A model generated the notes under the pieces. That model saw only the letters and a program-made list of their open reading frames with translations, was not told the origin of the DNA and did no database searches. Positions 3,346-63,477 of a stretch of DNA of 64,000 bases are shown piece by piece. The position numbers and the translations under genes were made by a program. Source of the stretch: Candidatus Bathyarchaeia archaeon (GTDB lineage: Archaea; Thermoproteota; Bathyarchaeia; Bathyarchaeales; Bathycorpusculaceae); the NCBI GenBank assembly GCA_049516875.1, contig JBEKSS010000008.1:34433-98432 (forward strand). Direction: 5' to 3'. Position 1 is the stretch's first letter. Each line of letters opens with the position of its first letter.

Positions 3346-3480
3346 TTACTTATCACCTTCAATTCTTGTTTTTCCTCTTTCTGCTTCACGGTTCTAACAA
3401 GAAGTTCTTCCTTTTGCTTGATTGCTTGATCTATCAAGCCTTTCCAGTTGCTAGGCACTTCCATTCTTGCGGCTTGCGCG
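3342..3480 (-). pseudogene. Probable C-terminal gene remnant
   Basis: AQAARMEVPSNWKGLIDQAIKQKEELL...KVISK*. Its stop overlaps the RHH start (ATGA). It begins at a CGCGC tract. Confidence 0.45.
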
Positions 3481-3633
3481 GGAGTTTTTCAGCCTAGACT
3501 TTGGTGAGGTCTCACGCAATTATAGTGAACTGCGTAACCTTCCAGGAGTAGCTTCGTTGAGTCGAACATCTCTACGATACTGTAAACTTTTCTGTCATGG
3601 AAATGGTTTTTGCTCTTTGCGATTGGAATCATA

Positions 3634-4092
3634 TTAGCCAAGATAGTAGTTTTCCATCAGTTTATTTACGGTGAAAAGTTCTTTATTTACTTCGTAGAGG
3701 TCCTGCAGGTTGATTGGGTTATTTTCCATTTTCAATGCTACGAGAGGAGGCAATAGACAGATAGCCTCTTTGCTCTTATCTGTTAAGAGGCTCTCAAGTC
3801 TTTTTGCTTCTCTATATGCTATGCGTTTGTTTGCATATTTTCTTGAAGCCATAATGAAAGAATAGCACGCGATGAAAATAGCAGCAATGGAAATCAATGT
3901 GGGAGTCCATTGTGAGATTGGAACAAAACTTAAAGTAGAGATCGCAAAAAAAGAAACAAGCAATAACAGTGCTATGACAACTAAGATTTGAGGAAAGGCA
4001 GTAAAAATATCAGCATATGTGGAACGTTTGAACTTTTCATCCACGAATTTTGCTAAGTCTCTCATTTTGTCTTTGTCATTTTGTCCTGACAA
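3634..4092 (-). CDS. 2-TM membrane protein
   Basis: Two hydrophobic helices followed by a soluble tail. GAGG RBS. Confidence 0.75.
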   Translation of the reverse strand: MSGQNDKDKMRDLAKFVDEKFKRSTYADIFTAFPQILVVIALLLLVSFFAISTLSFVPISQWTPTLISIAAIFIACYSFIMASRKYANKRIAYREAKRLESLLTDKSKEAICLLPPLVALKMENNPINLQDLYEVNKELFTVNKLMENYYLG

Positions 4093-4198
4093 TTCTAAAC
4101 AACCTCAAACTGGTTTTGTTAAGACTTACTATTTTTCGTTTTAACATTGATTTTTGTTTGCGGGCAGGGCTGAACGCGGATGCTCATAAGGTTTGTCA

Positions 4199-4274
4199 TT
4201 TTTGGAAGGGGATTTGAACCCCCGAACTATCGCTCAGTAGGCGGTTGCTTGTGTCCGTACTAAGCTATCCATGC
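4199..4274 (-). ncRNA. Degenerate tRNA-like element (anticodon ACT, short variable loop, broken acceptor stem)
   Basis: GCATGGA TA GCTT AGTACGGACAC AAGC A ACCGC CTACTGA GCGAT AGTTC GGGGG TTCAAAT CCCCT TCCAAAA A. D, anticodon and T arms fold; only 4/7 acceptor pairs form. Confidence 0.7.
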
Positions 4275-4292
4275 CCTGCTTTGTTAGTTCTT

Positions 4293-5651
4293 TTATCTAG
4301 GTACTATGTCTTTCAGGTTTTTCAATGATGACCCGTCTAATCTCTGAAAACCCATTTGTGATTCTTGTTTCTCTATTGCTGTGATGATCTCCCTCATTTC
4401 ATGCTCTCTGCAAAGTAAATAGTGTTCTCTAGCTCTCCTGTTGTATTCTATAAAATCATTTGTAGGAATTGTTGGATTTTCTGTACATGATTTGCAGTAA
4501 CAAGGAATTAGGTTATCATTATTCTCAACTGTTTTCAAGAAAGTCTCCTTACTTTGCATGGTCATATTTTTCGGGTCATACCGATTCATAAATGGGCTGA
4601 TTTCCTTTTGGTCTTTTCTTCTATCCTCACGATCTAAGTTGAACCCAGTCGATACTATAGCAAAAGAAGAAAGTGCAGCAGGAAATGTCTGGTTTCCTGC
4701 TTCAAGCAATCCAAAAGCCTTGTTCTCAAGATGCTGAGAAACGAGGCTTAGCTCCATTAAGAAACTTTTGAATGCAATCCTTTCAAGAGCCATATTTTCG
4801 TCATTCAAGTTAAGATTTTTGAATTTGAATAGAGTCAATGGGCTTTCGCTATTGGAGACGTATTCCTTTATTGTTGACATCATGTGTTCGTTTCTGAGAA
4901 TTTGGGGTTTTATGATGAAGTAATCTGCGCATTCTCTTTTTTCTTGACTGAGAGATGGGCTAAATGCCCTGCTTTTTTCATTCATGAAAATGGCAACTTC
5001 AAGCAGATGCGGCGATGTTATCAGTGGTACAGGCGGAATTAATACGTCAGTTCTTGCCTTAAGTTCGACAGTGAATGTGTCTCGTATGAGTTTCATTCTC
5101 ATTTTCGCGTCCTTGTAAACACATGTCCAGAAGTTTGTATGTTGCGTATCTCTAAATTCACTCGCACTCATGATATCCTTTGACTTGCCCTTTAATCGTT
5201 CTTCTTCAAGGTTCTTACTTTTTTCCAAAAATCTCACAAGGTGGTCTCGAATAGTGCGCGAGACGTAAGGAGTGTTTGAAAGTCGCTCCATGTTTACGCT
5301 ATAGAACATGTATTCGAGAGCAGGGTCAACAAAAAGTATCTCTTCTCCTGACTGTGGCGTGAACTGTGTATCTAGAGTCGATTGGTCCACCACAAGGGAG
5401 AGTGTTGATTTCTTCATTGAAGAATGGAGTGTTCTTCCAGTATCAAGCAACCTTACTACATACGCAGAAAGTTGTCTGGGAGAATAGACTTGTCCAACTT
5501 TATGGTAAGCTTTCAAATCACTATCGCTTTTTAGACGTGGCGCGAAGGTCGGAGTTACTAGAGTTTTGCCGTTTATTTTCAAGTCTGTTGATTCAGAGAA
5601 TTTGCATTTTCTTTCACGGTAGTGGGTAACTTGGATTTGGGGTGCGCTCAT
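4293..5651 (-). CDS. Divergent tRNA-guanine transglycosylase (TGT/DpdA)-fold protein
   Basis: N-terminal LKINGKTLVTPTFAP (TGT-like TPxFxP). FVDP at the DSGG position. C-terminal CYCKSC...H zinc site. Confidence 0.6.
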   Translation of the reverse strand: MSAPQIQVTHYRERKCKFSESTDLKINGKTLVTPTFAPRLKSDSDLKAYHKVGQVYSPRQLSAYVVRLLDTGRTLHSSMKKSTLSLVVDQSTLDTQFTPQSGEEILFVDPALEYMFYSVNMERLSNTPYVSRTIRDHLVRFLEKSKNLEEERLKGKSKDIMSASEFRDTQHTNFWTCVYKDAKMRMKLIRDTFTVELKARTDVLIPPVPLITSPHLLEVAIFMNEKSRAFSPSLSQEKRECADYFIIKPQILRNEHMMSTIKEYVSNSESPLTLFKFKNLNLNDENMALERIAFKSFLMELSLVSQHLENKAFGLLEAGNQTFPAALSSFAIVSTGFNLDREDRRKDQKEISPFMNRYDPKNMTMQSKETFLKTVENNDNLIPCYCKSCTENPTIPTNDFIEYNRRAREHYLLCREHEMREIITAIEKQESQMGFQRLDGSSLKNLKDIVPR

Positions 5652-6145
5652 GGTTTATTCTCCATCTTGGTACCTGCTATTGTGATGAACTTTTGTAATC
5701 CATCCATGAACTGAAAGATATCATGACATCTAATCATTATGCCACCTCTTACCGTTGTTGAGCGTAGTTCATCTTGCTCCTTTTCTTGTATGAACACGAA
5801 ATGTCCTTCAGCATTTTCCAGTTTAAAAAACTCGTAGATTTTGTTTCCAATGGGTATCGATAAGCGATCTGTTGGGTGGATAAGCCGACCGTTTACGTAG
5901 TATATTGAACCTGCGCCTCGGTCACTTTTGTAGGCTTCACGTATCGCCACAAGGTATTCTAGGTGTTTTGTTACGGTAATTCTATTCAAGTTAGTTGCGT
6001 CTGCCATTTCTGATGCCATGATACCGTTCTCATTCCTTGAGAGTATGCTCTTGATTAGAGATCTAACATAGCTTTCTCTTTCAGTTGGTTTTAGTGCCAG
6101 TATTTCTTCTGAGGATAGCATCACGTTAGGTTTGTTTATTTCCAT
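5648..6145 (-). CDS. wHTH regulator fused to PUR/DUF3276-like single-strand nucleic-acid-binding domain
   Basis: GIMASEMADATNLNRITVTKHLEYL (HTH). KIYEFFKLENAEGHFVFIQEKE...GIMIRCHDIFQFMDGL (PUR-like pattern). ATGA overlap with the TGT-like gene. Confidence 0.65.
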   Translation of the reverse strand: MEINKPNVMLSSEEILALKPTERESYVRSLIKSILSRNENGIMASEMADATNLNRITVTKHLEYLVAIREAYKSDRGAGSIYYVNGRLIHPTDRLSIPIGNKIYEFFKLENAEGHFVFIQEKEQDELRSTTVRGGIMIRCHDIFQFMDGLQKFITIAGTKMENKP

Positions 6146-6193
6146 TTTTTCCCTTCACCATGATGTTGATTTACTTGTATGTACGTCATGGTA

Positions 6194-6241
6194 GTTATAC
6201 TTCATGTATAACATCTCCTTCGTAAACGTTTTAGTTTATAA
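6194..6241 (-). promoter_or_regulatory. Palindromic operator GTTATAC-N5-GTATAAC downstream of TATA box
   Basis: Perfect 7-bp inverted repeat at 6194-6212. TTATAAA on the minus strand at 6235-6241. Confidence 0.55.
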
Positions 6242-6645
6242 TGTTTAGGGGGTCTGAGTATTTATGGTTTTGGTATCTTGTTGGCGCGCGCAACTTAACT
6301 CAACAATACCGCACTAAGAAGCAGTAAAACTGCACTCATCTTTTCTAGGGTGTTTCTATGGTCTTATCGTTAGCGCGCGTTTTTCAAGAAAGAGAAATAG
6401 TCGCTTGTGGAAACCGTCTTCCGAGACGCTTAGCATCGCATTTCCCAAGGATTAAGGAAAATCATCTCTGTCGATTGTATCAGGAGCCGGTTCAGTAGTT
6501 CCATTAGCCATAGTTCCATTAGCCATCAAAGCATCGACAAAAATTAAACAAATGCGCTTTAGTATCTCCAAGCGCACGCGCGCGCTTTTTCTATTCGTTA
6601 TGTTCATTTTCTTTTGTCGAAGTGAGAAATAGTTGAAAATGTCAA

Positions 6646-7446
6646 TCAGATTGTACGTGAAATGTTGATTTGTTTCGGAAGAAAGACTTTAACTTCGGAC
6701 AAGCTATTAGGAACAACTATCTTGCCTGATGAAGAAAGCTTAGATACTACCGAAGCATGGTCTCCGTCACGTTTAAAATTGAAATGAATAGATTTGAGGT
6801 CCTTAAATTCAATTAAACTTATGGGATCGCGGGTCTGGTTTAACTGTCTCAGAACATCTCCCGATATAGTATTGGAGTGGGTAACTATCAATAACCTTGT
6901 CAATCTTCGTATCTGTTTATACCTTGAGAATTTGCTGCAATCGTGGTCCCATCTAGCTATATCATAATCCGATGTAAGAGTAGACTCCAAATCCATTTTC
7001 TCGGAAGGATTAATTACTCGGTGAAAAGCGATAGTATCTGGCTCATTTTTGCCACCAATGACCTCGGTTATGTAGCCCATGTCTTGAAACATTTCAGGTA
7101 CGATCCGTTTTTCAAAATAAGTACTATTGTCAACAACTAAAAAGCCAATAAATTCTTCATAATGGATCTGCCTACCTCTTTGACATAATCTAAAATTTCC
7201 CAGAGAAGGTATCGATTTCCTCTTTAGACCTCCCTTTAAAATGCCTTCGGGGACTGTGAATCTGAATTTAGCTTTTCTGTCCAATGCTGAGAAACGAGCA
7301 CCAGGCAAAAGTTTCTTTTCTTCCAATTTTTGACTGAACTCTGGAACCAATTCAACTTTAATAGTTATATCCGACGTAGGTATGCGAGAAAATTGTAATT
7401 TAAAAAAAAGTATCACGTCTTGATTAGGCGTGAGCCAATTATTCAC
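6646..7446 (-). CDS. PD-(D/E)xK restriction-endonuclease-like protein
   Basis: FEKRIVPEMFQDMGY...GGKNEPDTIAF...DLEST. Confidence 0.6.
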   Translation of the reverse strand: MNNWLTPNQDVILFFKLQFSRIPTSDITIKVELVPEFSQKLEEKKLLPGARFSALDRKAKFRFTVPEGILKGGLKRKSIPSLGNFRLCQRGRQIHYEEFIGFLVVDNSTYFEKRIVPEMFQDMGYITEVIGGKNEPDTIAFHRVINPSEKMDLESTLTSDYDIARWDHDCSKFSRYKQIRRLTRLLIVTHSNTISGDVLRQLNQTRDPISLIEFKDLKSIHFNFKRDGDHASVVSKLSSSGKIVVPNSLSEVKVFLPKQINISRTI

Positions 7447-7449
7447 TTT

Positions 7450-8634
7450 TTAAGCCTCTGATTCTTCGACCTCTTCAACTTCCTCAGGTAAGCCTGTTTC
7501 AGGTATTTTGCCTGACTCAATTAGCCATTTCTTGGCGTTTTCTTCGTCGATATCAGCCTTATTCTCATCGGCTATTTCAAGACATTCTCTGCAAAACTCC
7601 ATTATGGTTCCCGGAATACCTCTGGAGATTGAGTTTATGTATTGTATAGCATCGTTTGTAAATGGTTTGCAAGACTTCAACGGTGATTTTCTCGCCTTGT
7701 TCAGAATTTCTGTCACAAATTTTTCTGCATCCTGATTGACGAAGCTCTCTAATGTGAATGTTTCTCCTATCCGTCTAAGGAATGTACTCAATCCAGCCGC
7801 TCCTGTCCTCTTCATTTCAGTCTCATAAACAGGGCCGATTATTAGATCTAATGTCTCTGGCGTAAATCCTAAGCATAATATAATTGGAACAGTTTCGTTA
7901 GGAGCCTTACTTAACTCAACCTTATTTTGTTCAAATATCTTTTTTAGCATGGTTAGCATTTCAACTAACTTTCCTGACCCAGCTAACGCCAGTTCTTCTG
8001 CTTCGTCTAGACACAATACAAAACCAGCGTATCCCAGTAATCTCAGCAAACGACAAAAACTACTGATTGCTCTTAAAGCGATAATCGGTGAGTCTATTTT
8101 GCTGTACACACCGATTTTCTTCAAGTCTCTCAAGTCTACTTTTTCTCCCGTAAACCACAGCCATACAAGTGACTCGTTATCTTTTAGTGCCAAAAACGCA
8201 TTCTTGAAATCCCTATCGAAATCTCTAAGCAACTCTTCAGGTTTTTTCCTGGTTTTAGATATCAATGTATCAAATTGGCTTCTTAATATCGAAAAAATGT
8301 TCTTTCCAATCTCGCGAAATGCAGAATTGCATACATACTGAATATACTTAGAGGCAGTGGTACTTATGGTCGCATCAAACTTCACAGCAACCACTGATTT
8401 TTGATTTGCAAAGTTTTTTCCTGAAATGAGTTCATTAGTTAGGTTGTCAAGGGTAAAAGATTTCCCAACACCAACGGTGCCGCTCAAGAAGACAATGAAA
8501 CAAGCATTTGCATTAACCGCTTTCTCTACTTGTCCAAGGATTTGGCCCAGTTGCTTTTTACGCGCCTCGCCTACAAGCTTATGATCGTGTTTTTCGTAGA
8601 ATGGGTTAAATGACAGCTCATGGTATGTGGGCAA
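7450..8634 (-). CDS. AAA+ ATPase, BrxD/DUF2791-like
   Basis: Walker A GTVGVGKS. WFTGE...LLRLLGYAGFVLCLDEAE (Walker B). Confidence 0.75.
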   Translation of the reverse strand: MPTYHELSFNPFYEKHDHKLVGEARKKQLGQILGQVEKAVNANACFIVFLSGTVGVGKSFTLDNLTNELISGKNFANQKSVVAVKFDATISTTASKYIQYVCNSAFREIGKNIFSILRSQFDTLISKTRKKPEELLRDFDRDFKNAFLALKDNESLVWLWFTGEKVDLRDLKKIGVYSKIDSPIIALRAISSFCRLLRLLGYAGFVLCLDEAEELALAGSGKLVEMLTMLKKIFEQNKVELSKAPNETVPIILCLGFTPETLDLIIGPVYETEMKRTGAAGLSTFLRRIGETFTLESFVNQDAEKFVTEILNKARKSPLKSCKPFTNDAIQYINSISRGIPGTIMEFCRECLEIADENKADIDEENAKKWLIESGKIPETGLPEEVEEVEESEA

Positions 8635-9780
8635 TTAGTATCCCTCTTGCACTATCGAGATGTAATAGTAGTTCGTTTTACCTATAAAGATGCCCCACTT
8701 TTTAGAAAAAATAGCACGAGACAAGGATATCCGATACCCGCCGTACATGTAACCTATTTCAATGATTTTCTTATCGAAAACGTACCATGGAATATCAAGC
8801 CTTAGACAGACCTCATCACGAATTATCGGAATCGACACAAGTTTTCCTGAAAGCTTAGCAAATTTCAGCCACGAAGATTTCAATAGTTCAAAAAATCTGC
8901 TATTTGAAATCAGGTTAGCTTCGTTCCAAAAGGCAAGATTCAATACCCGACCGACTTCATCCTGATTAATATGATATTTCGCGATTTCTTTCTGAATTAG
9001 ACCCAGAGAGACAAAAACTGAGAGTAAACTTCTAACGATTGCTTTCTGATTATCCATAATGGTTCTTTTAATCTCTTGCTTGGATTTTGATTCAATCCAT
9101 GAAGAAAGGCGTAGGTTGTCGGTCCAATTTCTTATTACACCTTTCTTCTTTAAGTCATTAAGAATTTTCTCGCGGGCTATTCTTTGGACGGCCTTAGTTG
9201 ATACCTCGATCTTCACACCTTTTCTAAGTAGCGATTGAGTCAGTTTGTCGATATCAGCTTCTTTACCAATCTCCTGTATAGTAGATAGAATTTCCCAAAG
9301 TCGGATATCTCTCTCTACGACTATTCGTTTAAACAAGTCCAGTGCATTTTTGCTTTGACTTATCCGAGATACATGCTCTTCGTTTATGATTTTTAGTAGT
9401 TTTCTTCCAAAAAATGTGAGCATCTCATATTGGTCTTGCTGTGAGACTAGATCAAATTGAATACAAGTAGGTAAGGCGAGTCCGTAAATTTGAGTTATAA
9501 GATACTTCTTGTTTGCTTTTCTCTTCTCATATGTTTGTCCTTCATAGTCGAGCGTTTTCCAATTCCTGATCTTTGCATCCACTCCATTCTGTTTGAGAAA
9601 GGTAAGGAATGCTGAAGGCAGTTCTCTATTGACTTTTTCTATTCGTCTTATTCTTTTTTGTCCAATTGTTCTCAAAACAATAGGTATGTGCCAGTCAACG
9701 CTGCCAAAGGAACTCTTTAGATTGGGTATATATTTGAATTTGTTATTATTTGGTGAAGATAAATCTGGCCTCAGAATCAA
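8635..9780 (-). CDS. Hypothetical basic protein with probable winged-helix domains
   Basis: 381 aa, abuts the ATPase gene. C-terminal VSIPIIRDEVC...NYYYISI is wHTH-like. Confidence 0.65.
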   Translation of the reverse strand: MILRPDLSSPNNNKFKYIPNLKSSFGSVDWHIPIVLRTIGQKRIRRIEKVNRELPSAFLTFLKQNGVDAKIRNWKTLDYEGQTYEKRKANKKYLITQIYGLALPTCIQFDLVSQQDQYEMLTFFGRKLLKIINEEHVSRISQSKNALDLFKRIVVERDIRLWEILSTIQEIGKEADIDKLTQSLLRKGVKIEVSTKAVQRIAREKILNDLKKKGVIRNWTDNLRLSSWIESKSKQEIKRTIMDNQKAIVRSLLSVFVSLGLIQKEIAKYHINQDEVGRVLNLAFWNEANLISNSRFFELLKSSWLKFAKLSGKLVSIPIIRDEVCLRLDIPWYVFDKKIIEIGYMYGGYRISLSRAIFSKKWGIFIGKTNYYYISIVQEGY

Positions 9781-9887
9781 ACTTTATCCACACCTATACT
9801 TAACATCAGCAATTTTAATCTATTCCCAAATCTTTGGCAAATCGGATAATCTTTCTGATCCAATCTTTTGTTGAAAGGTAAGCGCGC

Positions 9888-9965
9888 GCTGTTGGTGGTC
9901 TTGTCTACGTGGGATCCAATGATAACAGTACATACTGTCTGAACGCTGCTACTGGAACATTGGCC
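9888..9965 (+). pseudogene. Isolated PQQ-type beta-propeller repeat fragment
   Basis: AVGGLVYVGSNDNSTYCLNAATGTL, with no start of its own. Flanked by AGCGCGCGCT on both sides. Confidence 0.75.
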
Positions 9966-10088
9966 ATTCATCAACGACCGCTGCCCTTAGCGCGCGCTCA
10001 ATGTACTCGGCGTTTCAACAGGAAACCGGGTTGAACTGGCGCGCTCTTCATTTTCTGATTCTTTTCTGCCGTGCCAATATCTGATAAA

Positions 10089-10913
10089 TCATGCCAAGAG
10101 TATCTCTGCGGAGGTATACAGATTTGGCCAATATCTCTCCCATGTTCTGAATCCTGTGCCATGATTGTGATGGGTGCGAGCATTGAACTCTATTTGCAGC
10201 CATCCTTCTTTGATGCCAGCTAAGAATCTGGACAAGTCTGCACCTTGAAGTAACTGGGTCTTCCCAATTCTCATTTTCTGCTTTACACCTTCAGCTAACG
10301 TTTCCATTGAAACGTAAACCATGTTTCTTATCTTTTGACGAACCTTATTCCCCAAACCATCAAACGTCCAATATGGCACGGGTCGGAGATCACCCAATCC
10401 CACACGCCTTTGAACTTCCTCAAGCCAACCGCGATACTCTATCCTACCCGGAACTTTGGCGCTGTCAAAGTGCAGCTCCACTCTCTTCAATTCATCATTG
10501 ATAGTAGCAATGAACCCGCGTTCCGAAAAACCAGCGGCGTCAATGTCGATTCTCAAGCTTCGTTCCATCGGACCGTATTTCGGAATCGGCCAGCCATAGT
10601 CAACTAGAAGTTTAGGGATTACTTTTCCTGGATAGGGTTCAAAGCGAAACAGACTGATCAACGAGTTGCTGGTCGTCCTGTGGGTCTTCAGCTCAAATTC
10701 GCCGTAATCCGCTATCGGTATATTATTTTCTGGTATATGCAAAAGGTCCTCAAGGGTATTGCCGAGTCCGCCATCTTTATCTTGCCTATGGCTTGTAAGA
10801 GTTATCCACCCTCTCTCACGTATTTCCGAAAGACATTGAACCAATTCGTCTCTGGTATAGACCAATTCTCGCCTTTCTGGTATTTTCCTAGACCCAAAGA
10901 CCCATCTGTCCAC
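10089..10913 (-). CDS. MvaI/BcnI-family restriction endonuclease
   Basis: GGLGNTLEDLLHIPENN..ADYGEFELKT...HNHGTGFR. Confidence 0.85.
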   Translation of the reverse strand: MDRWVFGSRKIPERRELVYTRDELVQCLSEIRERGWITLTSHRQDKDGGLGNTLEDLLHIPENNIPIADYGEFELKTHRTTSNSLISLFRFEPYPGKVIPKLLVDYGWPIPKYGPMERSLRIDIDAAGFSERGFIATINDELKRVELHFDSAKVPGRIEYRGWLEEVQRRVGLGDLRPVPYWTFDGLGNKVRQKIRNMVYVSMETLAEGVKQKMRIGKTQLLQGADLSRFLAGIKEGWLQIEFNARTHHNHGTGFRTWERYWPNLYTSAEILLA

Positions 10914-11166
10914 CGTGAACCTCCCTCAACTATCCCAAGAACAAGTTCACAATGCTGACATTATCAGCATGAGTCCAGATATCATTTGCTGTTTCTGGTT
11001 TCGTTAAATCTTCGTTGGACCCGAGACCCTGTTAATCGTCGTGGAATAGCTATCAGCTTGTGTTTTTCGTTGTTCAATATGTGGTCTGATTCAGCGCGCG
11101 TGCCGCAAGAGACTTATCCAATGAAATGCATGGATGAACATCTCCAGACATTGTTGAGGTCTCCGT

Positions 11167-11427
11167 ATGTCTCCTCGAAATGCGAGATATCAAACACCTA
11201 CTTACATTGCTGATGCAATAAGGAGCAAACGCAAGAAACTGTTGTGCGGGCCACATTTCTGTCCAAAGTGCGGATTGGAGAAATTGCGAATCGAGGTAGA
11301 TAAGAAGAACAAGCAAGTCACTGCGGTGTGTAGTTGTGGCTTGGAACGTCAAATGAATTATGTTCCGGCTTTTGAAGGTGTAGACTACTACAACAGGTTT
11401 GCAGACGACTTCAAGAAACAGAAATAA
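11167..11427 (+). CDS. Elf1-like transcription elongation factor (Zn ribbon)
   Basis: Basic N-terminus, then FCPKCG...VDKK...VCSCGL...EGVDYYNRFAD. Confidence 0.7.
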   Translation: MSPRNARYQTPTYIADAIRSKRKKLLCGPHFCPKCGLEKLRIEVDKKNKQVTAVCSCGLERQMNYVPAFEGVDYYNRFADDFKKQK

Positions 11428-11551
11428 CGCGTCTAGTTGCATCGCGGTTTGCTTCTTCTTTTCTCACGATTGCGTATAGAACTAAATTTTATAAACTGAA
11501 CGTTCCTATTAGTGAAAGGGGACTGAAACGTCTATTCCTTCTGCGAGAGAT

Positions 11552-12235
11552 TTGGTTCAAGAAGCTGGTCGTTCAAATCCTTCGGCAGATGTGAATCAGT
11601 TACACGGTTTGACTTATCGGTTAATGCTAGAGTATAAGAAGAGATATTACGAGTCGAAGGTTGACGCTTTTCTTTCACGTATGAGCCTAGCGGATATTCC
11701 GAGTGAAACGAGGAGAAGGCTTAAACGAGAAATGGTCACGCCACTCGAAGCGAATGGAGTAGAATACGCTAACTTTATGGAAGAGGCTTCGAGACGTGTT
11801 AGTCAAACGTTCCAAGTTGTGAGCGGGAATATTGCGGAATTGTGTGCAGAAGGAGAACTAAACAGAGTCGGTCTAAGAGAGAACGTTCACTATAAGCGAA
11901 AAATCGAAAGAACCGATATTGTCGTGTATTTTCCGAATTTTCAGAACCAGAGAGGAAGACATAGAGTAGAGGTTAAGAATGTGAAACTTAGAGAAAGAGG
12001 AACAAGAGGATTAGCTTTCGATGGCGATTCAATGTTTGGGTTCTTTGATTCGCCTTCTGAATTTACTCAGTCTAATGTTGAAGTGATAGACGCTCAATGT
12101 TTGAGCACAAGAGGGTATTGCTATCTTCCACCTTCAACTCTTGACCAAATGCAGTATAGAGGGAATCGCTTTAGGCCCAATACACGATTCGCTCAAGATG
12201 TGCTCTATTTCACTCAAAATGGACATTTGCCTTAG
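11552..12235 (+). CDS. Type II restriction endonuclease (RER-motif, CCGG-family-like)
   Basis: SGNIAE...TDIVV...EVKNVKLRERG. Convergent with and overlapping the methyltransferase. Confidence 0.7.
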   Translation: MVQEAGRSNPSADVNQLHGLTYRLMLEYKKRYYESKVDAFLSRMSLADIPSETRRRLKREMVTPLEANGVEYANFMEEASRRVSQTFQVVSGNIAELCAEGELNRVGLRENVHYKRKIERTDIVVYFPNFQNQRGRHRVEVKNVKLRERGTRGLAFDGDSMFGFFDSPSEFTQSNVEVIDAQCLSTRGYCYLPPSTLDQMQYRGNRFRPNTRFAQDVLYFTQNGHLP

Positions 12236-13146
12236 CTTGGTCGCCAAAAGTCTAGGATATATTCGAATGTTGTTCCTAGAGTAATGTAGTTATTTGGATA
12301 ACCGAAAATTCCGACTTTATTAACTAGGTTTCTCCTATCCCAAATAATGATGTTTCTTAACTCATACCCTGCTTTTTGCATGTTTTCAATTAGGTAAAGG
12401 TGAATCGGAACACGTTTGTTTTCCCACCACAAATCTGTGACATTAATAACGCAATGTCCTTTTTTCCTCATTAAGGGTAAAATGCCGTGATAGATTTCTC
12501 CTATTGTCTGAGCGTATTTCTGTCCGTCCATAGTGCCTAAATCTCTTGGGTCTGTCGAATATTGTTGAACCTTTAGATAATGCTCATTCGTTCGCAAGTT
12601 TCCTCTTATGCTCTTGTTCTTTCTCGGTCTATTGAGTATGTTCGCATAAGGTGGCGAAGTCACACAGAGAGAAACAGTTTCTTCTTTCAAGTATTGCGGT
12701 ATGTTATGGGCTTCTTCACATATTGCAATTTGCTGGGTCTCTTGAATGAGCCGAGTTTGGGCAAGTCTTGATTTTGATGTTCTAATATATTCTTCTTTCA
12801 AGTCAAAACCAACAGCATTTCTGTGAACGTCTTGAGCGGCTAGCAAGGTCGTTCCAATTCCAACGAAAGGGTCTAAAACGAGTTCTCCTTTGTGAGTAAG
12901 TAACTCAATGCATTTTTTTGGAAGACCAATCGGAAAAACTGCGGGATGTATGTTCTTATCTCTGATGTCCCGTTTTTCATAGAAGAACTCCCAAATAGCC
13001 ACTTGGTCTTTAATCCACTCTTTTGCAGTAAGACAATTCATATGATTAGGTGGACAATTACAGATTCGAGTATGACCAATATTTAGAGGTTTGTCCACAT
13101 CAAGACTCTGAACCATCTTTTTTCCTTCTCTCAATTGAATAAGCAT
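12232..13146 (-). CDS. Amino DNA methyltransferase (likely m4C)
   Basis: HPAVFP, then DPFVGIGTT (motif I) preceding TSPPY (motif IV). Confidence 0.9.
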   Translation of the reverse strand: MLIQLREGKKMVQSLDVDKPLNIGHTRICNCPPNHMNCLTAKEWIKDQVAIWEFFYEKRDIRDKNIHPAVFPIGLPKKCIELLTHKGELVLDPFVGIGTTLLAAQDVHRNAVGFDLKEEYIRTSKSRLAQTRLIQETQQIAICEEAHNIPQYLKEETVSLCVTSPPYANILNRPRKNKSIRGNLRTNEHYLKVQQYSTDPRDLGTMDGQKYAQTIGEIYHGILPLMRKKGHCVINVTDLWWENKRVPIHLYLIENMQKAGYELRNIIIWDRRNLVNKVGIFGYPNNYITLGTTFEYILDFWRPS

Positions 13147-13235
13147 TTCTCTTCAATTTAAGGATTTGAAGCTGTTTGATGAATCGCCCTTTTTGGGCGC
13201 TAGTCCCTCCGCTCCGCCCTTATGCTGAAAACGCG

Positions 13236-14357
13236 CTACCTCCCTGTTCCTTTTTCTAACGTGTCTAGCAGTTTCACTGGGAAGTGTTTGATCTCTTTGT
13301 ACCTGTTTTTTCGGTATGTAAAATCTCTCTCATCTTTTTGCTCTAGGCTTTGTATCGTGGCTAAGAACTCGTCGAATATTGGCTCCATTATTTGTAGGAA
13401 GCTCCATCCTTTCTCTATCAAGATGTTGTTGTCAATCATTCCGGTTGAAGCGATGTCATGCCAAACCTGTAAGTGTATTGCATACTCTGTTAACCTGACA
13501 ACGTACAGCCCACGTTCAGGCACAGTTCTTTTAAGTTCTCGAAGGGTCTCAGGATCGATACCGGCGTTGGGTATGATGACATAACCAACATTAGCGTTCA
13601 ATCCCTTCATGTAATCTGCAACTTTCCTTATCTTGTCTCGTACAGATCTTAACTCCTCCGTGGTTACCTCATCAGCAACAATCTTCACTCTGTGATTGTC
13701 AACGAAAACATCAGGTTCATATTGGCCGATTTTCTCGTTGAATTTAATTTCCCCATTGTTTGACCAGAAGAGGGTTGTAATTTTCTTGACGCTTTGTTCG
13801 TGAACCATCTGGGCTGTTCGAGCCTCAGCCAGCTCTTCGAGCTGAACTCTAAGTGGGTCCCTCTCAAGATCGTCGATTTTCCGCTTGAGTGCTCTTGTTT
13901 CCTCTCGCATTTGGCTGTGTTCTCTTTGTTCAACCATTTGGAAAGCAGACTCAAGTTTCTCGGCGATGTTGCCTAGATGCTCTGCGGTTTCCCGGTAGAC
14001 CTCGGAGTTTCGATTCGTAATCTCTCTGAACGCGTTAGCGGTTGTTTCGCTCATCTTTCCATAGGTGTCCTTCAGCAAGTTCACGGCGTCATGAAGCCTT
14101 TCCGAATATTCCTGATAGAGTTTTTCTCTTAACTCTCTGGAGTCCGCGTCTTGTTTGTCCCTGATATGTTCTATCCTCTCCTCTATTCCCTGCAGACATT
14201 TCGTCCGTTCCTCTAGCATCGCTAGTTGGGTTAATACGTTCGTGTTTGGTCGCCGGATGGAAAACAACAACCTCAGTTTTCCTGTTCTTGCGTAAAAAAC
14301 GATCAACGCCGTGGACAGTACGCCTAGAGGTACAAGCAGCCACCACAACCATGACAT
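13236..14357 (-). CDS. RmuC-like protein (N-terminal TM, coiled coil, PD-(D/E)xK-like domain)
   Basis: MSWLWWLLVPLG anchor, long coiled coil, EPDVFV...IVADEV. Confidence 0.6.
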   Translation of the reverse strand: MSWLWWLLVPLGVLSTALIVFYARTGKLRLLFSIRRPNTNVLTQLAMLEERTKCLQGIEERIEHIRDKQDADSRELREKLYQEYSERLHDAVNLLKDTYGKMSETTANAFREITNRNSEVYRETAEHLGNIAEKLESAFQMVEQREHSQMREETRALKRKIDDLERDPLRVQLEELAEARTAQMVHEQSVKKITTLFWSNNGEIKFNEKIGQYEPDVFVDNHRVKIVADEVTTEELRSVRDKIRKVADYMKGLNANVGYVIIPNAGIDPETLRELKRTVPERGLYVVRLTEYAIHLQVWHDIASTGMIDNNILIEKGWSFLQIMEPIFDEFLATIQSLEQKDERDFTYRKNRYKEIKHFPVKLLDTLEKGTGR

Positions 14358-14652
14358 GTTTTTAGCCCCTTAAAATTCTTTCATGCAATTCTACATTTAA
14401 GCAATACAACGATATTCGTAGAATTATATAAATGTTGCGTTGTAGATTTGTAGGTTAGGTCGGTAAGCACCCGCGCGCGCCGTGGCTCATCTTCCAGAAA
14501 TATCGCTAAAATTGATTTCTCTCTTTTTTTCCAAGATTCTTTAGGGAAACTAGTGAAAAGCCTCAAAATCGCCTTCTTTTTTCCTCTAATGGCTGAATAT
14601 TCAATGATTCAACGAGAAGGCTTTTAATACGTTCTAACATTTTGTTATAACA

Positions 14653-14940
14653 ATGTGCTTGAATATGAAAAAAGAAATGGTTGAAGAGGGGATGGTGGTA
14701 ACTAAACCCAGGAAGGTCATTACCGTTGGACATAGCAAAGCGGTCACTCTTCCAAAAAAATGGCTAGACGTTCAGTTGTGGCTAGGAAAGGAAGTCATTG
14801 AACTTGCGAGCATCGGGAATAGTGCGGTCATATTCTGCAACCCTAAGGATGTACTCAAATGGAAAAACATCATCAAAAAAATCGAAGATCAACCTTTGTC
14901 CGCGCGCGCCGGTCTCAACCCACAAACTAAGAATTGTTAG
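14653..14940 (+). CDS. AbrB/MazE-like DNA-binding protein
   Basis: RKVITVGHSKAVTLPKKWL. Confidence 0.75.
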   Translation: MCLNMKKEMVEEGMVVTKPRKVITVGHSKAVTLPKKWLDVQLWLGKEVIELASIGNSAVIFCNPKDVLKWKNIIKKIEDQPLSARAGLNPQTKNC

Positions 14941-15074
14941 TTCGAGGAGTTGACCATGAACGGTGGGAAACTGAATCACAAAAATCTCTTTCTCTTCAAT
15001 TTTGGCATCGCCGTTCAAGACTGCTTGTTCATTCGAAGTTACTCGGTGATCTTTAAACGAAACCGAAAATCTAT

Positions 15075-15221
15075 CTATTGCTCACCCGTTTTCAGCCAGA
15101 GTTTTATGGCTTCTTGGACGGCCTGCCGTAAGGCTCCTTTCTTTCCCCTGAATCTTCTTACTACCTCCAACCTCAATTTTTGCTCAAGTTCATCGTCGAG
15201 CCTTACATTCAGCATTCCCAT
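15075..15221 (-). CDS. 48-aa ribbon-helix-helix regulator (below ORF-track cutoff)
   Basis: MGMLNVRLDDELEQKLRLEVVRRFRGKKGALRQAVQEAIKLWLKTGEQ. Confidence 0.85.
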   Translation of the reverse strand: MGMLNVRLDDELEQKLRLEVVRRFRGKKGALRQAVQEAIKLWLKTGEQ

Positions 15222-15330
15222 GTTAGACACTATACCACAATTCTATGACGCAACATTTAAGTATTTGGCTGACCAAATGTTGCATTGTGGAAATGTAGTA
15301 TTGTAGAGTTAGCGCAAAGGAAAAAGCAAA

Positions 15331-15366
15331 ACCAAGGGGGAGTCCGCCAAGACCGCACCCCTTGGT
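15331..15366 (+). promoter_or_regulatory. Hairpin in integrase leader
   Basis: ACCAAGGGG...GTC-CGCCAA-GAC...CCCCTTGGT, with a perfect 9-bp outer stem. Confidence 0.6.
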
Positions 15367-15382
15367 GTGGAACTGACCCGGT

Positions 15383-16852: not shown

Positions 16853-16976
16853 AAATACTGGAAGGATTAATCTTTTTTCTGGTTGATTTGCCTTTAGTGT
16901 AGAACATTTCAAGAATGGTTGAATGGAAAGACATTTTTGAATGGTTTTTAGACTTTATTTAAGACTAGGGCTGTTT

Positions 16977-37810: not shown

Positions 37811-37906
37811 ATGAATAGAATGGTGATAGTGACAGGAATTCTAGGAAGTGGAAATACCAGAGTGCGCGCCGCAAAAGAGATCTTAAAGGCTTTGGAGGTT
37901 GTCTAG
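37811..37906 (+). pseudogene. adkA: Adenylate kinase remnant (internal deletion)
   Basis: MNRMVIVTGILGSGNT (decayed P-loop) joined to AAKEILKALEVV*, in the conserved secY-adk-DUF106 position. Confidence 0.8.
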
Positions 37907-57526: not shown

Positions 57527-57532
57527 ATTGAA

Positions 57533-58558: not shown

Positions 58559-58577
58559 AGTCAAGGTGTGATGGTGA

Positions 58578-59945: not shown

Positions 59946-60341
59946 TTGACCGTGGAGAACGTGTCCGATGTAAATGCGAGTGATTGGGCAGAAGAGGTTT
60001 CCAAGCCTACGGTCCTGACGGTCATCTATTTTTGGCATACCCAATGCCCTTGGTGTCTCAGACTTAATCCCATCTTCGGCGAAATCACAAAGGAGTTTAG
60101 AGGAAAAATCAGATTTCTCAGGCTAAACGTGCTTGAAAACCCGGCTAACCAGGAGTTAGCAAGCAACTTTGGACTTATGAGCACTCCCACCCTGCTTTTC
60201 CTATGCAAAGGGAGACCTGTAGGCCAGATCGTCGGCTTTGCGTCCAAGGAAGACTTGGAGAGGGGACTGAATGATATACTTGGAAGATATCGGCAATGCC
60301 TCAGTCAAAGCACCGAACTGAGACCAGCATACATTGTATGA
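59946..60341 (+). CDS. Thioredoxin family protein
   Basis: CPWC active site, STPT cis-Pro. Confidence 0.88.
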   Translation: MTVENVSDVNASDWAEEVSKPTVLTVIYFWHTQCPWCLRLNPIFGEITKEFRGKIRFLRLNVLENPANQELASNFGLMSTPTLLFLCKGRPVGQIVGFASKEDLERGLNDILGRYRQCLSQSTELRPAYIV

Positions 60342-60469
60342 AAGACTGTATGAACAAACCTTTGGGCGATCTGTCGTACCCCGACTCGCGATTTCAATTA
60401 ATGATGCCCTCAATTCCAAACCTGAAGCGCGTGCAGATTCAGGACAGTCTGTAGTTTGCTTTTCCGCTC

Positions 60470-60588
60470 TCATTTTACTTTGGGCATCTTAATCGTGAAC
60501 ACGGCTCCTTTTCTGGGTTCGCCAACTTCCTGTATGGTCCAGCCGTAGACTTCCATCATCTTCTTTATTAGGTAAAGCCCGTAGCCTA
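60470..60588 (-). pseudogene. Histidine-kinase (HATPase) C-terminal remnant
   Basis: GYGLYLIKKMMEVYGWTIQEVGEPRKGAVFTIKMP. Similarity starts at the (GC)5 run. Confidence 0.8.
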
Positions 60589-60796
60589 GCGCGCGCGCAA
60601 GATCCGCGTGGCCAAGAAGACTAGTGAGTCCACTTTGGCTGAAAGAACCATTAGCAGCAAACAAAAAGGCCTTTGATAATTTCAATAGGTGACTCCGAGC
60701 TGCAGAGTAAGTGGGATGGGGGGGACTGCAGGATATTGGCTTGTATGCAAGATTTATTAGCATCAAGAATGAAATTTAAGAACGGAGTTACCGGGT

Positions 60797-61294
60797 TTGA
60801 GTAAGAGAGAAGAAGCACAGAGCAAGCTTCTTTTCGAGTTAATTAAAGGCGCAAGAAGAAGCGATAGAGATCTTGCAAGAGTCATGAAAATCTCACAGCC
60901 AACCGTAACTCGAAAGAGGACGATTCTGGAAAGAGAAGGTTTGATACGAGAGTATACTGTTATACCGGACCTCGAAAAAATGGGTTATCAAATATTAGCA
61001 TTTACTTTTCTGAGCTTTAACCAGCCGCCAAGACCAGAGCTAATGGAAAGAGCAAAAGAATGGGCAAAGAAACAGCCATCTTTGATATTTGCGGCGGATG
61101 GCGCAGGTATGGGCATGAACAGTGTTATGGTGTCAGCACACAAAGACTATGCTAGCTTCTCAAGGCTGGTTACCCAGCTGAGGCAAGATTGGCAGCCAAA
61201 CCTCAAGGACATGCAGAGCTTCATGATATGCGTGAATAGGCCAGAACTTTTCATAAAACAATTCTCTTTTCGCCATTTGGAGGCAAATGAATGA
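60797..61294 (+). CDS. Lrp/AsnC family regulator
   Basis: RRSDRDLARVMKISQPTVTR...IPDLEKMGY. Confidence 0.9.
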   Translation: MSKREEAQSKLLFELIKGARRSDRDLARVMKISQPTVTRKRTILEREGLIREYTVIPDLEKMGYQILAFTFLSFNQPPRPELMERAKEWAKKQPSLIFAADGAGMGMNSVMVSAHKDYASFSRLVTQLRQDWQPNLKDMQSFMICVNRPELFIKQFSFRHLEANE

Positions 61295-61402
61295 CTTTTG
61301 CGGGCGCTAAAATAGCTGACCAAATAAGGGAAGTTATGGCAAGACTAATTGTCAGAATAGAAGGGCAAGAACCGATCGGAGAGCGCCACAAAGACATTGA
61401 CT

Positions 61403-61849
61403 CTAAGAGGAAGGCAGTAGAACAGTTGAGTTCTCGCGAACCAGCATCGTTACGGATGATTCTCTTAATTCTTTGATGCGGTTGTCGACAGTTGTGCAAA
61501 TGCTCATTCGGATATTATTATTGTTTGAGGAAGAGATTCTTCCTAGTTTTGCGGCAAGTTTGGAATCACCAAGGACTTTCTCCACCCAGTTTTGAAAGTC
61601 ATTTCTCTGAAGATGGAACACTAGGCTTTCCGAGTTGACAGATTTCACCTTGCCGAGAAAGTCAGGAAGGTTTCTCGCAATTTCACCCGTTGGTTTTCCA
61701 ATAGATTCATAAAAATAGAAGGCTTCTCTGTCTCCTACCGTTCTCAGAATCTTTACAGTTTCTATATCGACCTCTAGATTGTTGTTGTCTTTTGTTTTCT
61801 TGTTTTTGGAGGACGTGTTTTTTTTCATCAAATTCACCATCAAGAGCAA
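61403..61849 (-). CDS. DUF5752-like protein
   Basis: AFYFY...SLVFHLQRNDFQNWV..VLGD. Confidence 0.75.
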   Translation of the reverse strand: MLLMVNLMKKNTSSKNKKTKDNNNLEVDIETVKILRTVGDREAFYFYESIGKPTGEIARNLPDFLGKVKSVNSESLVFHLQRNDFQNWVEKVLGDSKLAAKLGRISSSNNNNIRMSICTTVDNRIKELRESSVTMLVRENSTVLLPSS

Positions 61850-62056
61850 GCGTTAACTTGCATCCTGAGACTTAATAAACGTTCCTGGCAAAGTGTACAA
61901 CTCTCAGACAACACTAGCTATGATGTCTAGACTATCTTTTTCTACTGAAAATTGCTGCTAGCGGAATATGGAGAAATGTTGCGGCCGTCAGAGCGGTCGC
62001 TAATGATAGAAAGAGATGGACGTGCAGGGAGTGTACGTTATTCATTTGTTTAGAAC

Positions 62057-62560
62057 TTAGTCTTCTCCAAACTTGTTGAAGCCTACTATTTCTTCAACAC
62101 GCTTCCTTTTTCTGGGCTGCGGTTTTTCAGCGGGATATCCAAATGATATAAGAGCTACAACGTTCCAGCTTTCGGGGATGCTGAGGAGTTTCTTGACTTT
62201 TTCTTCACTGAAGTCTCCTATCCAACACGAACCTATTCCCAAAGCCCAAGCAGCAATAACCATGTTCTCCAATGCGATAGTAGTGCTGACAATTGACCAT
62301 TTTCCAGCAATAAGATCCTTATGAGCACATCCCACAATGCAAACTGGAGCATCCTTGATGAATCTGCTAAACGCCCCATTAGACAATTTCTTCTTGATTT
62401 CAGAATCAGTCAACACGATGAAGTGCCAAGGTTGCTTATTGGCCGCTGATGGAGCCTGTCTGCCAGCCTCAAGAATCTTGTCTAAAACATCTCTAGGAAT
62501 CTCTTTTTGCTCATAACGTCTTATGCTTCTTCTGCTGAGAACAACGTCAACAAGAGACAT
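62057..62560 (-). CDS. Nitroreductase
   Basis: RRSIRRY, APSAANKQPW, GIGSCWIG. Confidence 0.93.
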   Translation of the reverse strand: MSLVDVVLSRRSIRRYEQKEIPRDVLDKILEAGRQAPSAANKQPWHFIVLTDSEIKKKLSNGAFSRFIKDAPVCIVGCAHKDLIAGKWSIVSTTIALENMVIAAWALGIGSCWIGDFSEEKVKKLLSIPESWNVVALISFGYPAEKPQPRKRKRVEEIVGFNKFGED

Positions 62561-62682
62561 AAACACCCTTCAAACAGTTGTTGCTTCCAATTTCAAATAA
62601 CTGTTACTCACATTTTGGGAGAGACCTGAGGGAACTAAGAGGCTGAAGAGAGATTGGCTTAATGCGCGCGCAACGATTGAGA

Positions 62683-62769
62683 CTACTTCTTTAAGCGTTT
62701 CTCCTTATGCTTTCTTCTTTTCTCTTCTCTTTCCTTCTTAGTCATTGGTTTCTTCTTAGCACTTCCCAT
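62683..62769 (-). CDS. 28-aa highly basic peptide
   Basis: MGSAKKKPMTKKEREEKRRKHKEKRLKK, with GGTGA RBS upstream. Confidence 0.5.
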   Translation of the reverse strand: MGSAKKKPMTKKEREEKRRKHKEKRLKK

Positions 62770-62886
62770 GCTCAACACAATCACCGCGGTAAAATACTCA
62801 GAATAGGGAATTGAATTTTCGCACGCGCTAGGCAGGTGAGAACTGGGAAGTTTGAAAGAAGTGGGCTCGTGTGCACGTGGTGGACG

Positions 62887-63031
62887 TCAGTGCGAGATTG
62901 AAAAGGCTTTTTGGAGTATGCCATTCTTATAGCCTGTGGTTTTCTTCCTGAAATATTCGATCAACATGCTTCTATCTGAAGTTCTCAGCTTGCTGTCAAG
63001 GATGAATTGATAGATGTCCTCCCATCTAACT
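62887..63031 (-). pseudogene. Probable C-terminal gene remnant
   Basis: VRWEDIYQFIL...YFRKKTTGYKNGILQKAF. Protein-like only downstream of CGCGCGC. Confidence 0.45.
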
Positions 63032-63477
63032 CGCGCGCTAGACATGATGAATGGCACAAGTTCTATGTGTTTCTGCCTCTGATTTTTCAAATCTGGCAAC
63101 ATTCTTCTTTTCTCCTCACTTTCTCAAGATTCCTCTTTCCATGTTTCCATTTTGCGTGACTTTTCATTCTTTTCAAAAATCGTTTTCTTTTCCTCTCTTC
63201 TTCCTAGATCGTTTCAAGCTAAATCTTCCTTCCTAGAATTACATAGTGACAATAAACAAGGATTGCAACCTATCACCTAAATGCGAAGTGAATGCTGTGT
63301 CTAAAATCGGAATCTTGAATAAGGGAGTCGCGTGAAAATATCCTCAGGCTGCTCTGTTGTTTGGTCGCTTTATAAGGAAGTATGCGTAGTATAGGGCAGT
63401 AGCGTTCTGTCGCTGAAGGACGAGAAGAACACAGTAACGTTACATGTAACAATCAATGACGAAAGGAGTGATGGAAA

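Follow-up and report, generated by a model that had tools for sequence, protein, structure and literature searches.

Introduction

Insertion sequences (IS) of the IS5 family and the related miniature inverted-repeat transposable elements (MITEs) are exemplified by the Correia elements of Neisseria and by Stowaway-like MITEs, which show a TA duplication. Here we describe a 64,000-nucleotide stretch of DNA from a Candidatus Bathyarchaeia archaeon (contig C8, JBEKSS010000008.1, positions 34433-98432; hereafter the window), in which short runs of alternating G and C, called tracts below, stand beside gene remnants, and we report that in the same genome GCGCGC adjoins the ends of an IS5-family element and of its MITEs. 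Our best explanation is that the tracts are TA-flanked (GC)3-5 palindromes at sites of DNA cutting and rejoining; in the reading that we favour, with a probability of roughly 0.4, these elements account for the tracts, as tips or as scars left behind.

Other systems bear on the comparison. Bacterial-type non-homologous end joining (NHEJ) uses Ku and LigD, has an archaeal case in Methanocella paludicola and leaves junctions with short additions of no fixed sequence. Repetitive extragenic palindromes (REPs) are located downstream of genes, and some IS insert into them, a known precedent for IS elements that target a palindrome. The GC clusters of yeast mitochondria are short GC palindromes of 30-40 bp and defined structure, lying in AT-richer spacers, optional between strains and found at end points of recombination and deletion. 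HIP1 (GCGATCGC) is a cyanobacterial palindrome (PMC4390886), and the text of that paper makes no mention of GCGCGC, archaea or intergenic. Judged by title and abstract, none of the papers listed for GCGCGCGC in archaea was relevant, and nothing came up on miniature inverted-repeat elements in Bathyarchaeota.

Results

The genome that carries the window (G000) is a metagenome-assembled genome (MAG) of 2.43 Mb, in 20 contigs and with 47% GC. The original prediction had listed alternating C/G runs at twelve positions of the window, taken them for junctions of truncated or captured gene fragments and put forward an end-joining pathway as a candidate origin. The observation itself was confirmed, as the runs are present at all twelve positions, and CGCGCG occurs 18 times in the window compared to 7.10±2.60 times in 100 dinucleotide-preserving shuffles, none of which reached 18. 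At the level of the whole genome, comparison with a maximal-order Markov model identified GCGCGC as the most over-represented hexamer (2,824 copies for 1,848 expected on both strands, z = 22.7). GATCGATC and CGATCGAT are likewise among the most over-represented octamers.

The tracts are concentrated in non-coding DNA, with 369 of the 447 copies of GCGCGCGC (83%) located outside predicted genes compared to 10-36% for control octamers made only of G and C. These figures rest on our own crude gene model, which contains 2,167 genes and leaves about 20% of the genome non-coding (79.6% coding), a high proportion for an archaeon; the GC motif accounts for part of this unusually large fraction. Tracts occur in every kind of spacer, 252 of 1,799 spacers carrying at least one, and their density peaks between convergent genes, at 1.0 per kb, and in the 0-40 nt that follow stop codons. 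Their phase is strongly biased, with 212 maximal runs of GCGCGCGC for 28 of CGCGCGCG. In the G-to-C phase the lengths are distributed as 345 (GC)3, 212 (GC)4, 48 (GC)5 and a single (GC)6, so that tracts beyond 10 nt are rare.

We also scored the immediate flanks of the 212 copies of (GC)4. TA adjoins 70 of them on the left and 65 on the right, including 23 with TA on both sides (11%), and neither side carries it in the remaining 100. As TA is found beside only about 5% of (GC)2 controls per side, tracts are some sixfold more often flanked by this dinucleotide, which is scarce in the genome (0.605 of expectation). Among 778 runs, no conservation was detected past position -2, and the idea that the tract is part of a longer conserved element was rejected. 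When all tract flanks were clustered, only 195 of 2,242 had any similar partner.

This distribution may be read as that of a dispersed palindrome of the REP or HIP1 kind, kept by the host or selfish. Under this explanation, which we consider unlikely, TA(GC)nTA would bind a protein or be prone to form Z-DNA, would be retained between genes, would be fragile and recombinogenic, and would offer a landing pad to IS5-family elements that duplicate GCGC on insertion; junctions would coincide with tracts since breaks and insertions occur there. The non-coding bias and the density in convergent spacers and past stop codons argue for it. On the other hand, nothing is conserved beyond TA, and we identified neither a protein that binds the motif nor a methyltransferase. 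A search for Vsr gave 7 of 201 Bathyarchaeia genomes, none of them tract-rich, and Vsr-driven biased repair was thus discarded as a candidate. This and the other genome counts below are based on one representative per species, and many of these genomes are incomplete MAGs.

The largest group of alike tract flanks begins with ATGCnTGTTCCnAAAT directly at the tract and corresponds to the end of a MITE of about 190 bp. Its organisation is TA, GCGCGC-ATGCnTGTTCCnAAAT ... ATTTnGGAACAnGCAT-GCGCGC, TA, the inner ends reading ATGC...GCAT. G000 contains 36 inverted-repeat ends of this MITE with GCGCGC directly outside, most of them then followed by TA, and paired GCGCGC-capped ends enclose elements of about 150-310 nt. 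The cap is exactly GCGCGC in 30 of the 36 ends, far more uniform than the lengths of solo tracts, and therefore the tracts at MITE ends are not independent fillers, as the end-joining pathway of the original prediction would have them. Some inverted-repeat ends carry (GC)4, including ends with (GC)4 on one side, a point that also suits a pre-existing palindrome. Of the MITE copies listed that are devoid of a second inverted repeat, two have a tract as a cap at the break.

An element able to encode a transposase was found in the same genome at C7:36804-37906. This IS of about 1.1 kb (1.09 kb) is bounded by inverted repeats (TGCCTTGTCTC... and ...GGGACAAGCCA) that adjoin GCGCGC and share TGGCTTGTCCCTAAAT, akin to the inverted repeat of the MITE. 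Its 307-aa transposase (L199:329-1249, minus strand) contains the DDE_Tnp_1 (E 6e-14) and DUF772 (E 9e-9) domains, and the element was therefore placed in the IS5 family. The transposase is also encoded in G001 and G003 (88-89% identity). MITE matches number 76 in G000, 35 in G002, 11 in G001 and 1, weak, in G003; within the genus, the presence of the element tracks the abundance of tracts. In five other genomes, including tract-poor ones, 12 of 17 ends of this IS family adjoin a (GC)2-3.5 run of 4-7 nt, without a constant TA. The presence of GC runs at these ends, even in tract-poor genomes, speaks for a transposon origin; their variable length is in keeping with end joining.

In the window itself, positions 1949-1978 (plus strand) correspond to the right end of a truncated MITE, in which the inverted repeat GACCATTTTAGGAACACACAT is followed by the decayed tip GCGCGA and then TA. 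It belongs to the same inverted-repeat family, with 27-nt matches that are 100% identical in G002. A second trace lies at 62820-62830, where only one tract, decayed to CGCACGCGC and accompanied by TA, is present in the window. The corresponding place in G004 and G002, two genomes of the same genus, is occupied by about 370 nt arranged as tract, MITE, tract, truncated MITE and tract. The arithmetic of this occupied site also suits a pre-existing palindrome, as a 4-bp duplication would turn the 9-nt tract of the window into 6+6+6 nt by way of two insertions. In a separate comparison, GCGTGC alone stands in G002 in place of 297 nt of G004, a MITE included. Both cases would fit an element in one genome and a solo tract in another. 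No clean empty MITE site was found. The unique flanks of the G004 MITEs in L101 gave no orthologue in G002.

Two further stretches came to light in the search for elements. An IS630/Tc1-type transposase was tried as a TA-specific partner and rejected, its sole match on G004 contig C58 (L194) having no matching inverted repeat; this contig of 1.9 kb is GC-rich, repeats its start at its end, encodes an IS630-type (DDE_3) transposase and looks foreign or circular. A stretch of 1.96 kb in G000 (C1:76833-78803, L198) combines one MITE-type and one IS-type inverted repeat around a winged-helix (HTH_45) open reading frame (ORF) with no transposase, and may be a composite or cargo-carrying element.

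A GCGCGC-capped mobile element may offer a conventional source of tracts that calls for no new repair pathway. The course of events can be pictured in four steps. Every insertion would set two identical, self-complementary GC tips at the site. Adjacent deletions or inversions made by the transposase would then begin exactly at a tip, and a neighbouring gene would therefore be cut short at the tract itself. The body of the element would next be lost through slipped pairing or microhomology joining of the two tips, leaving a solo tract of 3-5 units, at most 6, several joining registers being possible because the tip is a dinucleotide repeat. Point mutation would finally erode the solo tracts. 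Adjacent deletion and tip slippage, the second and third steps, are known from work on other insertion sequences. Such a chain would yield tracts at the edges of gene wrecks and between the segments of accessory islands, and nearly only in non-coding DNA. This transposon explanation predicts the phase of the tracts and their TA flanks, a maximum length of two tips, the bias towards non-coding DNA and lineage specificity. The observed length distribution is indeed one with a cut-off at twice the GCGCGC tip.

Several observations weigh against it. Of more than 1,100 tracts, only about 50 could be placed at the end of a recognisable element, and an element with inverted repeats was found between neighbouring tracts in only 22 of 1,781 pairs. 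The share of (GC)4 tracts with TA on both sides is far below what a simple excision scar predicts. G003 has 253 tracts for its single weak MITE match. Neither this inverted repeat nor the transposase was found in G107, G115 and G142, tract-rich genomes of family f31, and both were likewise missing in G172, G104 and G207, which also carry tracts; TA flanks are nevertheless the same in G115, and their presence in lineages devoid of the IS speaks for a palindrome that precedes the element. Conversely, the closest homologues of the IS are in G222 and G171, yet these genomes have 9 tracts each. GCGCGC could also be a duplicated target, produced when an element inserts into an existing (GC)4 with a 4-bp duplication, and elements that may merely insert into existing tracts would leave the origin of the tracts unexplained.

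The distribution of the motif is patchy at a larger scale. All five genomes of the genus contain 168-646 copies of the tract, while most sister genera have 0-30. Among 201 Bathyarchaeia genomes sampled evenly, at least two further families include tract-rich and phase-biased members, for example G107, a complete genome in one contig, with 601 copies, G115 with 373, G113 with 325 and G142 with 300. TA flanks are found in samples of two of these unrelated genomes too (10 and 11 of 36 tracts sampled in G115, 4 and 2 of 9 in G113).

We then considered the junctions on which the original prediction was built, beginning with the adenylate kinase gene adk. In 11 relatives, secY is followed by an intact adk of 195 codons (L004, L006, L008, L013, L014, L017, L020, L024, L109, L114 and L115). 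In the window, this gene is reduced to a wreck of 31 codons (37811-37906, plus strand), in which about 17-19 N-terminal and 12 C-terminal codons are joined across a tract of only 6 nt (GCGCGC, 37864-37869). The claim that adk homology breaks at this tract was borne out by comparison with L109, the closest of these relatives (88.6% DNA identity). The window has lost 500 nt (L109 bases 7493-7992), clear homology reaching ...GGAAATACCA and picking up again from GCCGCAAAAGAG, and the tract falls in an 8-nt gap. The intact allele is tract-free at both breakpoints. L146, a strain 98.4% identical to the window, reads ACCAGA-GCGCGCGC-CGCAAAAG at the junction; as it has the full GCGCGCGC, the GTGCGCGC of the window is therefore a tract decayed by a C-to-T change.

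The same junction is common to several species and metagenome contigs. Decayed versions of its tract occur in G002 and others, and in G004 and the metagenome contig L113 the wreck is shorter, having lost a further 3 nt on the left side and 14 nt on the right side of a tract that is still perfect. Not all adk deletions are of this kind, as G003 has a larger one without a tract and G001 an independent one at an ATGAG microhomology, again without a tract. More generally, the adk gene downstream of secY was lost or damaged by various routes in this group (window 37811-37906, L002, L003, L015, L110, L111 and L120), while close relatives keep it.

The adk junction bears no trace of any element, which counts against a transposon origin, and it is among the findings that favour the end-joining explanation. 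According to the latter, a pathway writes (GC)n on broken ends, the self-complementary tails anneal, and each junction keeps a tract of 6-10 nt; as tracts would be fragile, sites would break again and be sealed with a fresh tract. The patch at the adk junction (GAGCGCGC in L146; 6-8 nt) is a poor match to either parental side, despite a local divergence of about 11%, and the re-trimmed allele of G004 and L113 retains a perfect tract, two features which argue for newly written DNA. A similar case was found in G002, where a 256-nt deletion is sealed by GCGCGCGC; G004 is tract-free at both breakpoints, and no trace of any element is left at this junction either. The appearance of a new tract at the adk and G002 junctions between tract-free parents is not explained by a pre-existing palindrome. 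It should be noted that adk and G002 are the two junctions with a known parent, and that each can alternatively be read as 4-5 parental matches out of 8.

Two other homology breaks named in the original prediction also held. The match of the PQQ (beta-propeller) repeat fragment begins at 9887-9890, directly past the GCGCGCGC tract at 9882-9889 that forms its 5' edge. This 100-nt fragment (9890-9989, plus strand) has a tract on each side, the second being GCGCGCGC at 9990-9997 with TA at left, and it is 76-85% identical at the DNA level to tandem 120-nt PQQ repeats of G002, G003 and G004 (matching bases 9890-9956). An intact PQQ-like contig reads ...CCTGCCGT ahead of the common TGTTGG, so that only 3 of 8 bases agree with the tract, again as expected of newly written DNA. 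In our reading of the frame, PQQ-like translation resumes about 50 nt too early, which would make the tract at 9990 an internal deletion junction. As regards the histidine-kinase tail (60470-60588, minus strand), its last 38 HATPase_c residues (positions 72-109 of 111; a weak match, E 0.0088) begin at the (GC)5 tract of 60589-60598, which has TA at left. DNA homology with a histidine-kinase paralogue on C17 covers 60452-60586 and stops 3 nt before this tract, which lies inside a segment (60187-61445) missing from the syntenic place in G002 and G004.

The picture is mixed at 62664. The GCGCGCGC tract at 62664-62671 is the edge of a three-copy repeat within G000, in agreement with the predicted junction, but it lies inside a colinear block with respect to two relatives, which read GCGCCGCC and GCGCGGCC at this place. 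The tract thus differs in all three genomes, by substitutions only, which points to weak purifying selection on individual sites and does not favour a palindrome kept by the host. It is located 11 nt past the stop codon of a very basic small ORF of about 26 codons (MGSAKKKPMTKKEREEKRRKHKEKRLKK, 62683-62763, minus strand), which is kept in G002 and G004 and has three copies in G000, the others at C1:369276-369429 and C1:384576-384726.

Genome-wide, 286 ends of protein-similarity fragments in spacers were scored, of which 19 have a tract no more than 3 nt away for 7.1±2.4 expected by chance, a 2.5-fold enrichment approximately; the chance level was obtained from random places in the same spacers, ends no more than 5 nt from a spacer edge were dropped, and the ends of such similarity matches are imprecise. 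A tract is thus missing from most ends of gene fragments. For DNA repeated within the genome, ends are enriched at tracts only about twofold (41 of 3,156 versus 0.49% in a shifted control). Between G004 and G002, which are about 95% identical, 9 gaps in colinearity were found over 74 kb, of which 5, the 256-nt deletion of G002 among them, have a tract at the edge or within 13 nt; our comparisons of close genomes span only about 75 kb in all. The other 4 gaps are free of tracts, as is the break of the window versus L146 at 41231, and such breakpoints are at odds with a pathway that leaves a tract at each junction. We conclude that tracts mark junctions, though not exclusively. It was also observed that six paralogues of a protein of about 1,100 aa, sharing about 70% DNA identity, are encoded at C10:91772-95212, C10:96555-99863, C1:514687-517995, C9:113010-116438, C2:233831-237172 and C10:107926-111213; in four of the six, the similarity between copies runs 10-45 nt beyond the stop codon and stops at a tract.

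The same comparisons inform on how tracts are gained. Several tracts of 6-7 nt have been gained or lost through single substitutions, with polarised gains from GCACGCG to GCGCGCG in G004 and from GCGCGG to GCGCGC in G002, and two of five long tracts are in the same place in G004 and G002, the others varying. Both results would fit a dispersed palindrome. The gain and decay of tracts by point substitution in colinear DNA count against end joining, as does the fact that none of about 60 tract comparisons showed a tract simply inserted into DNA that is uninterrupted elsewhere.

The enzymes that end joining would require were looked for. G000 possesses a complete Ku-LigD operon (C9:90883-93943; L193:6883-9940) encoding a LigD_Prim-Pol protein (E 3e-82), Ku (E 2e-40) and a ligase with the LigD_N 3'-phosphoesterase domain, followed by a DUF72 gene, and 9 tracts lie within 5 kb in the neighbourhood of this operon, which would be in line with the original prediction. 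The expected co-occurrence failed, however: Ku was found in 45 of the 201 Bathyarchaeia genomes sampled, which for the most part are poor in tracts (fewer than 30 copies), and only 3 of 10 tract-rich genomes have it; it was not found in G003 (93% complete, 253 tracts). Ku is therefore neither necessary nor sufficient. No palm domain of PolX passed the cut-off in the genus, so that PolX was rejected as the tailing enzyme, and no polymerase adding (GC)n was identified. We know of no enzyme that writes alternating GC.

The left part of the window (1-16955) is an accessory and defence island, strain-specific and of lower GC than the rest. The syntenic stretches of G004 and G002 have no DNA match to it, and an abundant related strain (runs X7 and X5) shares DNA with the window solely from 16956 on. 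Eight of the 14 window runs with a (CG)3 core sit in these 17 kb, and single tracts set the segments of the island apart, a bracketing that end joining also accounts for. In addition to the two that border the PQQ fragment, island tracts were found at 6284-6291 (GCGCGCGC), at 6373-6379 (GCGCGCG, TA at left and five T after), at 6577-6585 (CGCGCGCGC, five T after; the 6572 of the original prediction includes a GCGCA in front), at 11094-11100 (GCGCGCG), where the tract separates a restriction-enzyme segment from a methylase segment, at 14472-14480 (CGCGCGCGC) and at 14901-14909 (CGCGCGCGC), where the homology of 14631-14889 with G002:C3 stops 12 nt short.

That the tracts could be chimeras of library or assembly, joined at low-complexity GC runs, had to be considered for a MAG in 20 contigs. 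Logan contigs of runs X5, X6 and X7 cross island tracts with no difference, those of X5 jointly covering 9 of 9; some of these runs are possibly the source sample, X7 not being flagged as such. It follows from these independently assembled contigs that the tracts are no joints of the assembly. The same tracts are moreover in place in G002 and G004, and the sharing of the adk junction between species refutes this explanation there as it is refuted for the island; we give it hardly any credence. Contigs of four runs, those that cover more than a small share of the window, revealed neither length polymorphism nor an alternative joint at any island tract, which does not support the original prediction.

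The genes of the island include a BrxC/D-like AAA ATPase, a restriction enzyme of the MvaI/BcnI family and an N6/N4 DNA methylase, and many of its ORFs have no Pfam match. The defence-type genes, at 7450-13146, each lie within a tract-bounded segment. With restriction-modification genes at hand, GCGCGC as the top hexamer and tract-bracketed segments, one may think of a BssHII-like activity that cuts GCGCGC, the cohesive CGCG ends being rejoined and the site regenerated. This is very improbable, since the parents at the adk, PQQ and G004 breakpoints have no GCGCGC, contradicting it at all three junctions, and the commonest form of the tract is an 8-mer rather than the 6-mer site. The specificity of the family of the island enzyme, which we take to be CCWGG/CCSGG, does not fit either. 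No integrase or site-specific recombinase was detected by Pfam among the island ORFs scanned, most of which have no Pfam match. A weak Rfam tRNA match (33.7 bits; 4203-4271, minus strand), not called by ARAGORN, is also found in the island and could be a tRNA fragment left behind by an integrating element; the Rfam scan of the window gave nothing beyond tRNA matches.

The remainder of the window is conserved core, which aligns with relatives in the same order, apart from gaps, at a DNA identity of 75-86%, and encodes a ribosomal-protein cluster, SecY, an EMC3-like membrane protein, a cytidylate-kinase-like protein, a HypF-like protein and others. Runs that the original prediction had not listed occur here within intact genes, at 22818 (HypF-like protein), 40776 (GT2 glycosyltransferase) and 58292 (trypsin/PDZ protease), and further unlisted GCGCGC hexamers are at 34208, 46458 and 63873. 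At the right end, the CGCGCGC tract at 63032-63038, with TA at right, adjoins multi-copy DNA (63261-63870). Each of the five genomes of the genus has this DNA and that at 63879-64000 in several locations, and an Alba-domain ORF (63478-63765) lies inside the former.

Discussion

Taken together, these results lead us to rank a transposon origin first, followed by de novo end joining and then by a fragile palindrome targeted by IS. The end-joining inference of the original prediction stands in part: tracts are non-random, they lie at the junctions of gene wrecks and variable segments, the intact alleles at the adk and G002 deletions are tract-free, and a complete Ku-LigD operon is encoded. The Ku and PolX results and the TA flanks speak against it; neither these flanks, which it does not predict, nor the GCGCGC-ended elements had been noticed in that prediction. 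It would account in fewer steps for the adk and G002 junctions, whose parents are known, for the adk allele that was trimmed again and for the bracketed fragments. An end-joining route of this kind in several Bathyarchaeia lineages, hitherto undescribed, whose newly written (GC)3-5 joint would enable deletion of gene pieces, capture of stray fragments or excised transposons and the build-up of tract-punctuated accessory arrays, is thus conceivable but doubtful.

On either explanation, the 8-12-bp motif is a readable marker of cut-and-rejoined sites in genomes of these uncultured archaea. If the tracts derive from transposons, an IS with its MITEs and microsatellite-like tips can leave hundreds of scars and drive gene decay, and such events could simply be mapped and dated in genomes from metagenomes. 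If they derive from end joining, a repair pathway would have a fixed sequence signature, which to our knowledge has no counterpart in any domain of life. The link to an IS and its MITEs, the TA flanks and the negative phyletic results for Ku, Vsr and PolX are new here.

How do the tracts compare with described systems? With IS5-family IS and MITEs, the elements of G000 share the DDE_Tnp_1 and DUF772 domains, terminal inverted repeats, non-autonomous copies of about 190 bp, TA on both sides and an intergenic location. They differ in that a self-complementary (GC)3 microsatellite terminates the inverted repeats, be it the tip of the element or a duplicated target, and in that solo tips outnumber elements about 20 to 1 and mark deletion junctions. 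Ku-LigD NHEJ is matched by the full gene set in one operon of G000 and by junctions that are deletions with a few extra bases, but the (GC)n found here is fixed and the presence of Ku does not follow tract abundance.

Like REPs, bacterial interspersed mosaic elements (BIMEs) and HIP1, the tract is a short, lineage-specific and highly iterated palindrome. It is much shorter than a REP and, unlike HIP1, is almost confined to non-coding DNA. It is also tied to deletion junctions, and neither a cognate methyltransferase nor Vsr was found for it. The GC clusters of yeast mitochondria are alike in setting, whereas the tracts are 6-10 bp of pure alternating GC. Finally, the island resembles the attC arrays of integrons and the clusters of attC sites lacking integron integrases (CALINs), in that single genes or fragments are parted by one short palindromic site; the differences are that no integrase was seen among the ORFs scanned, that this site is only 6-12 bp long and that tracts also seal internal deletions of housekeeping genes.

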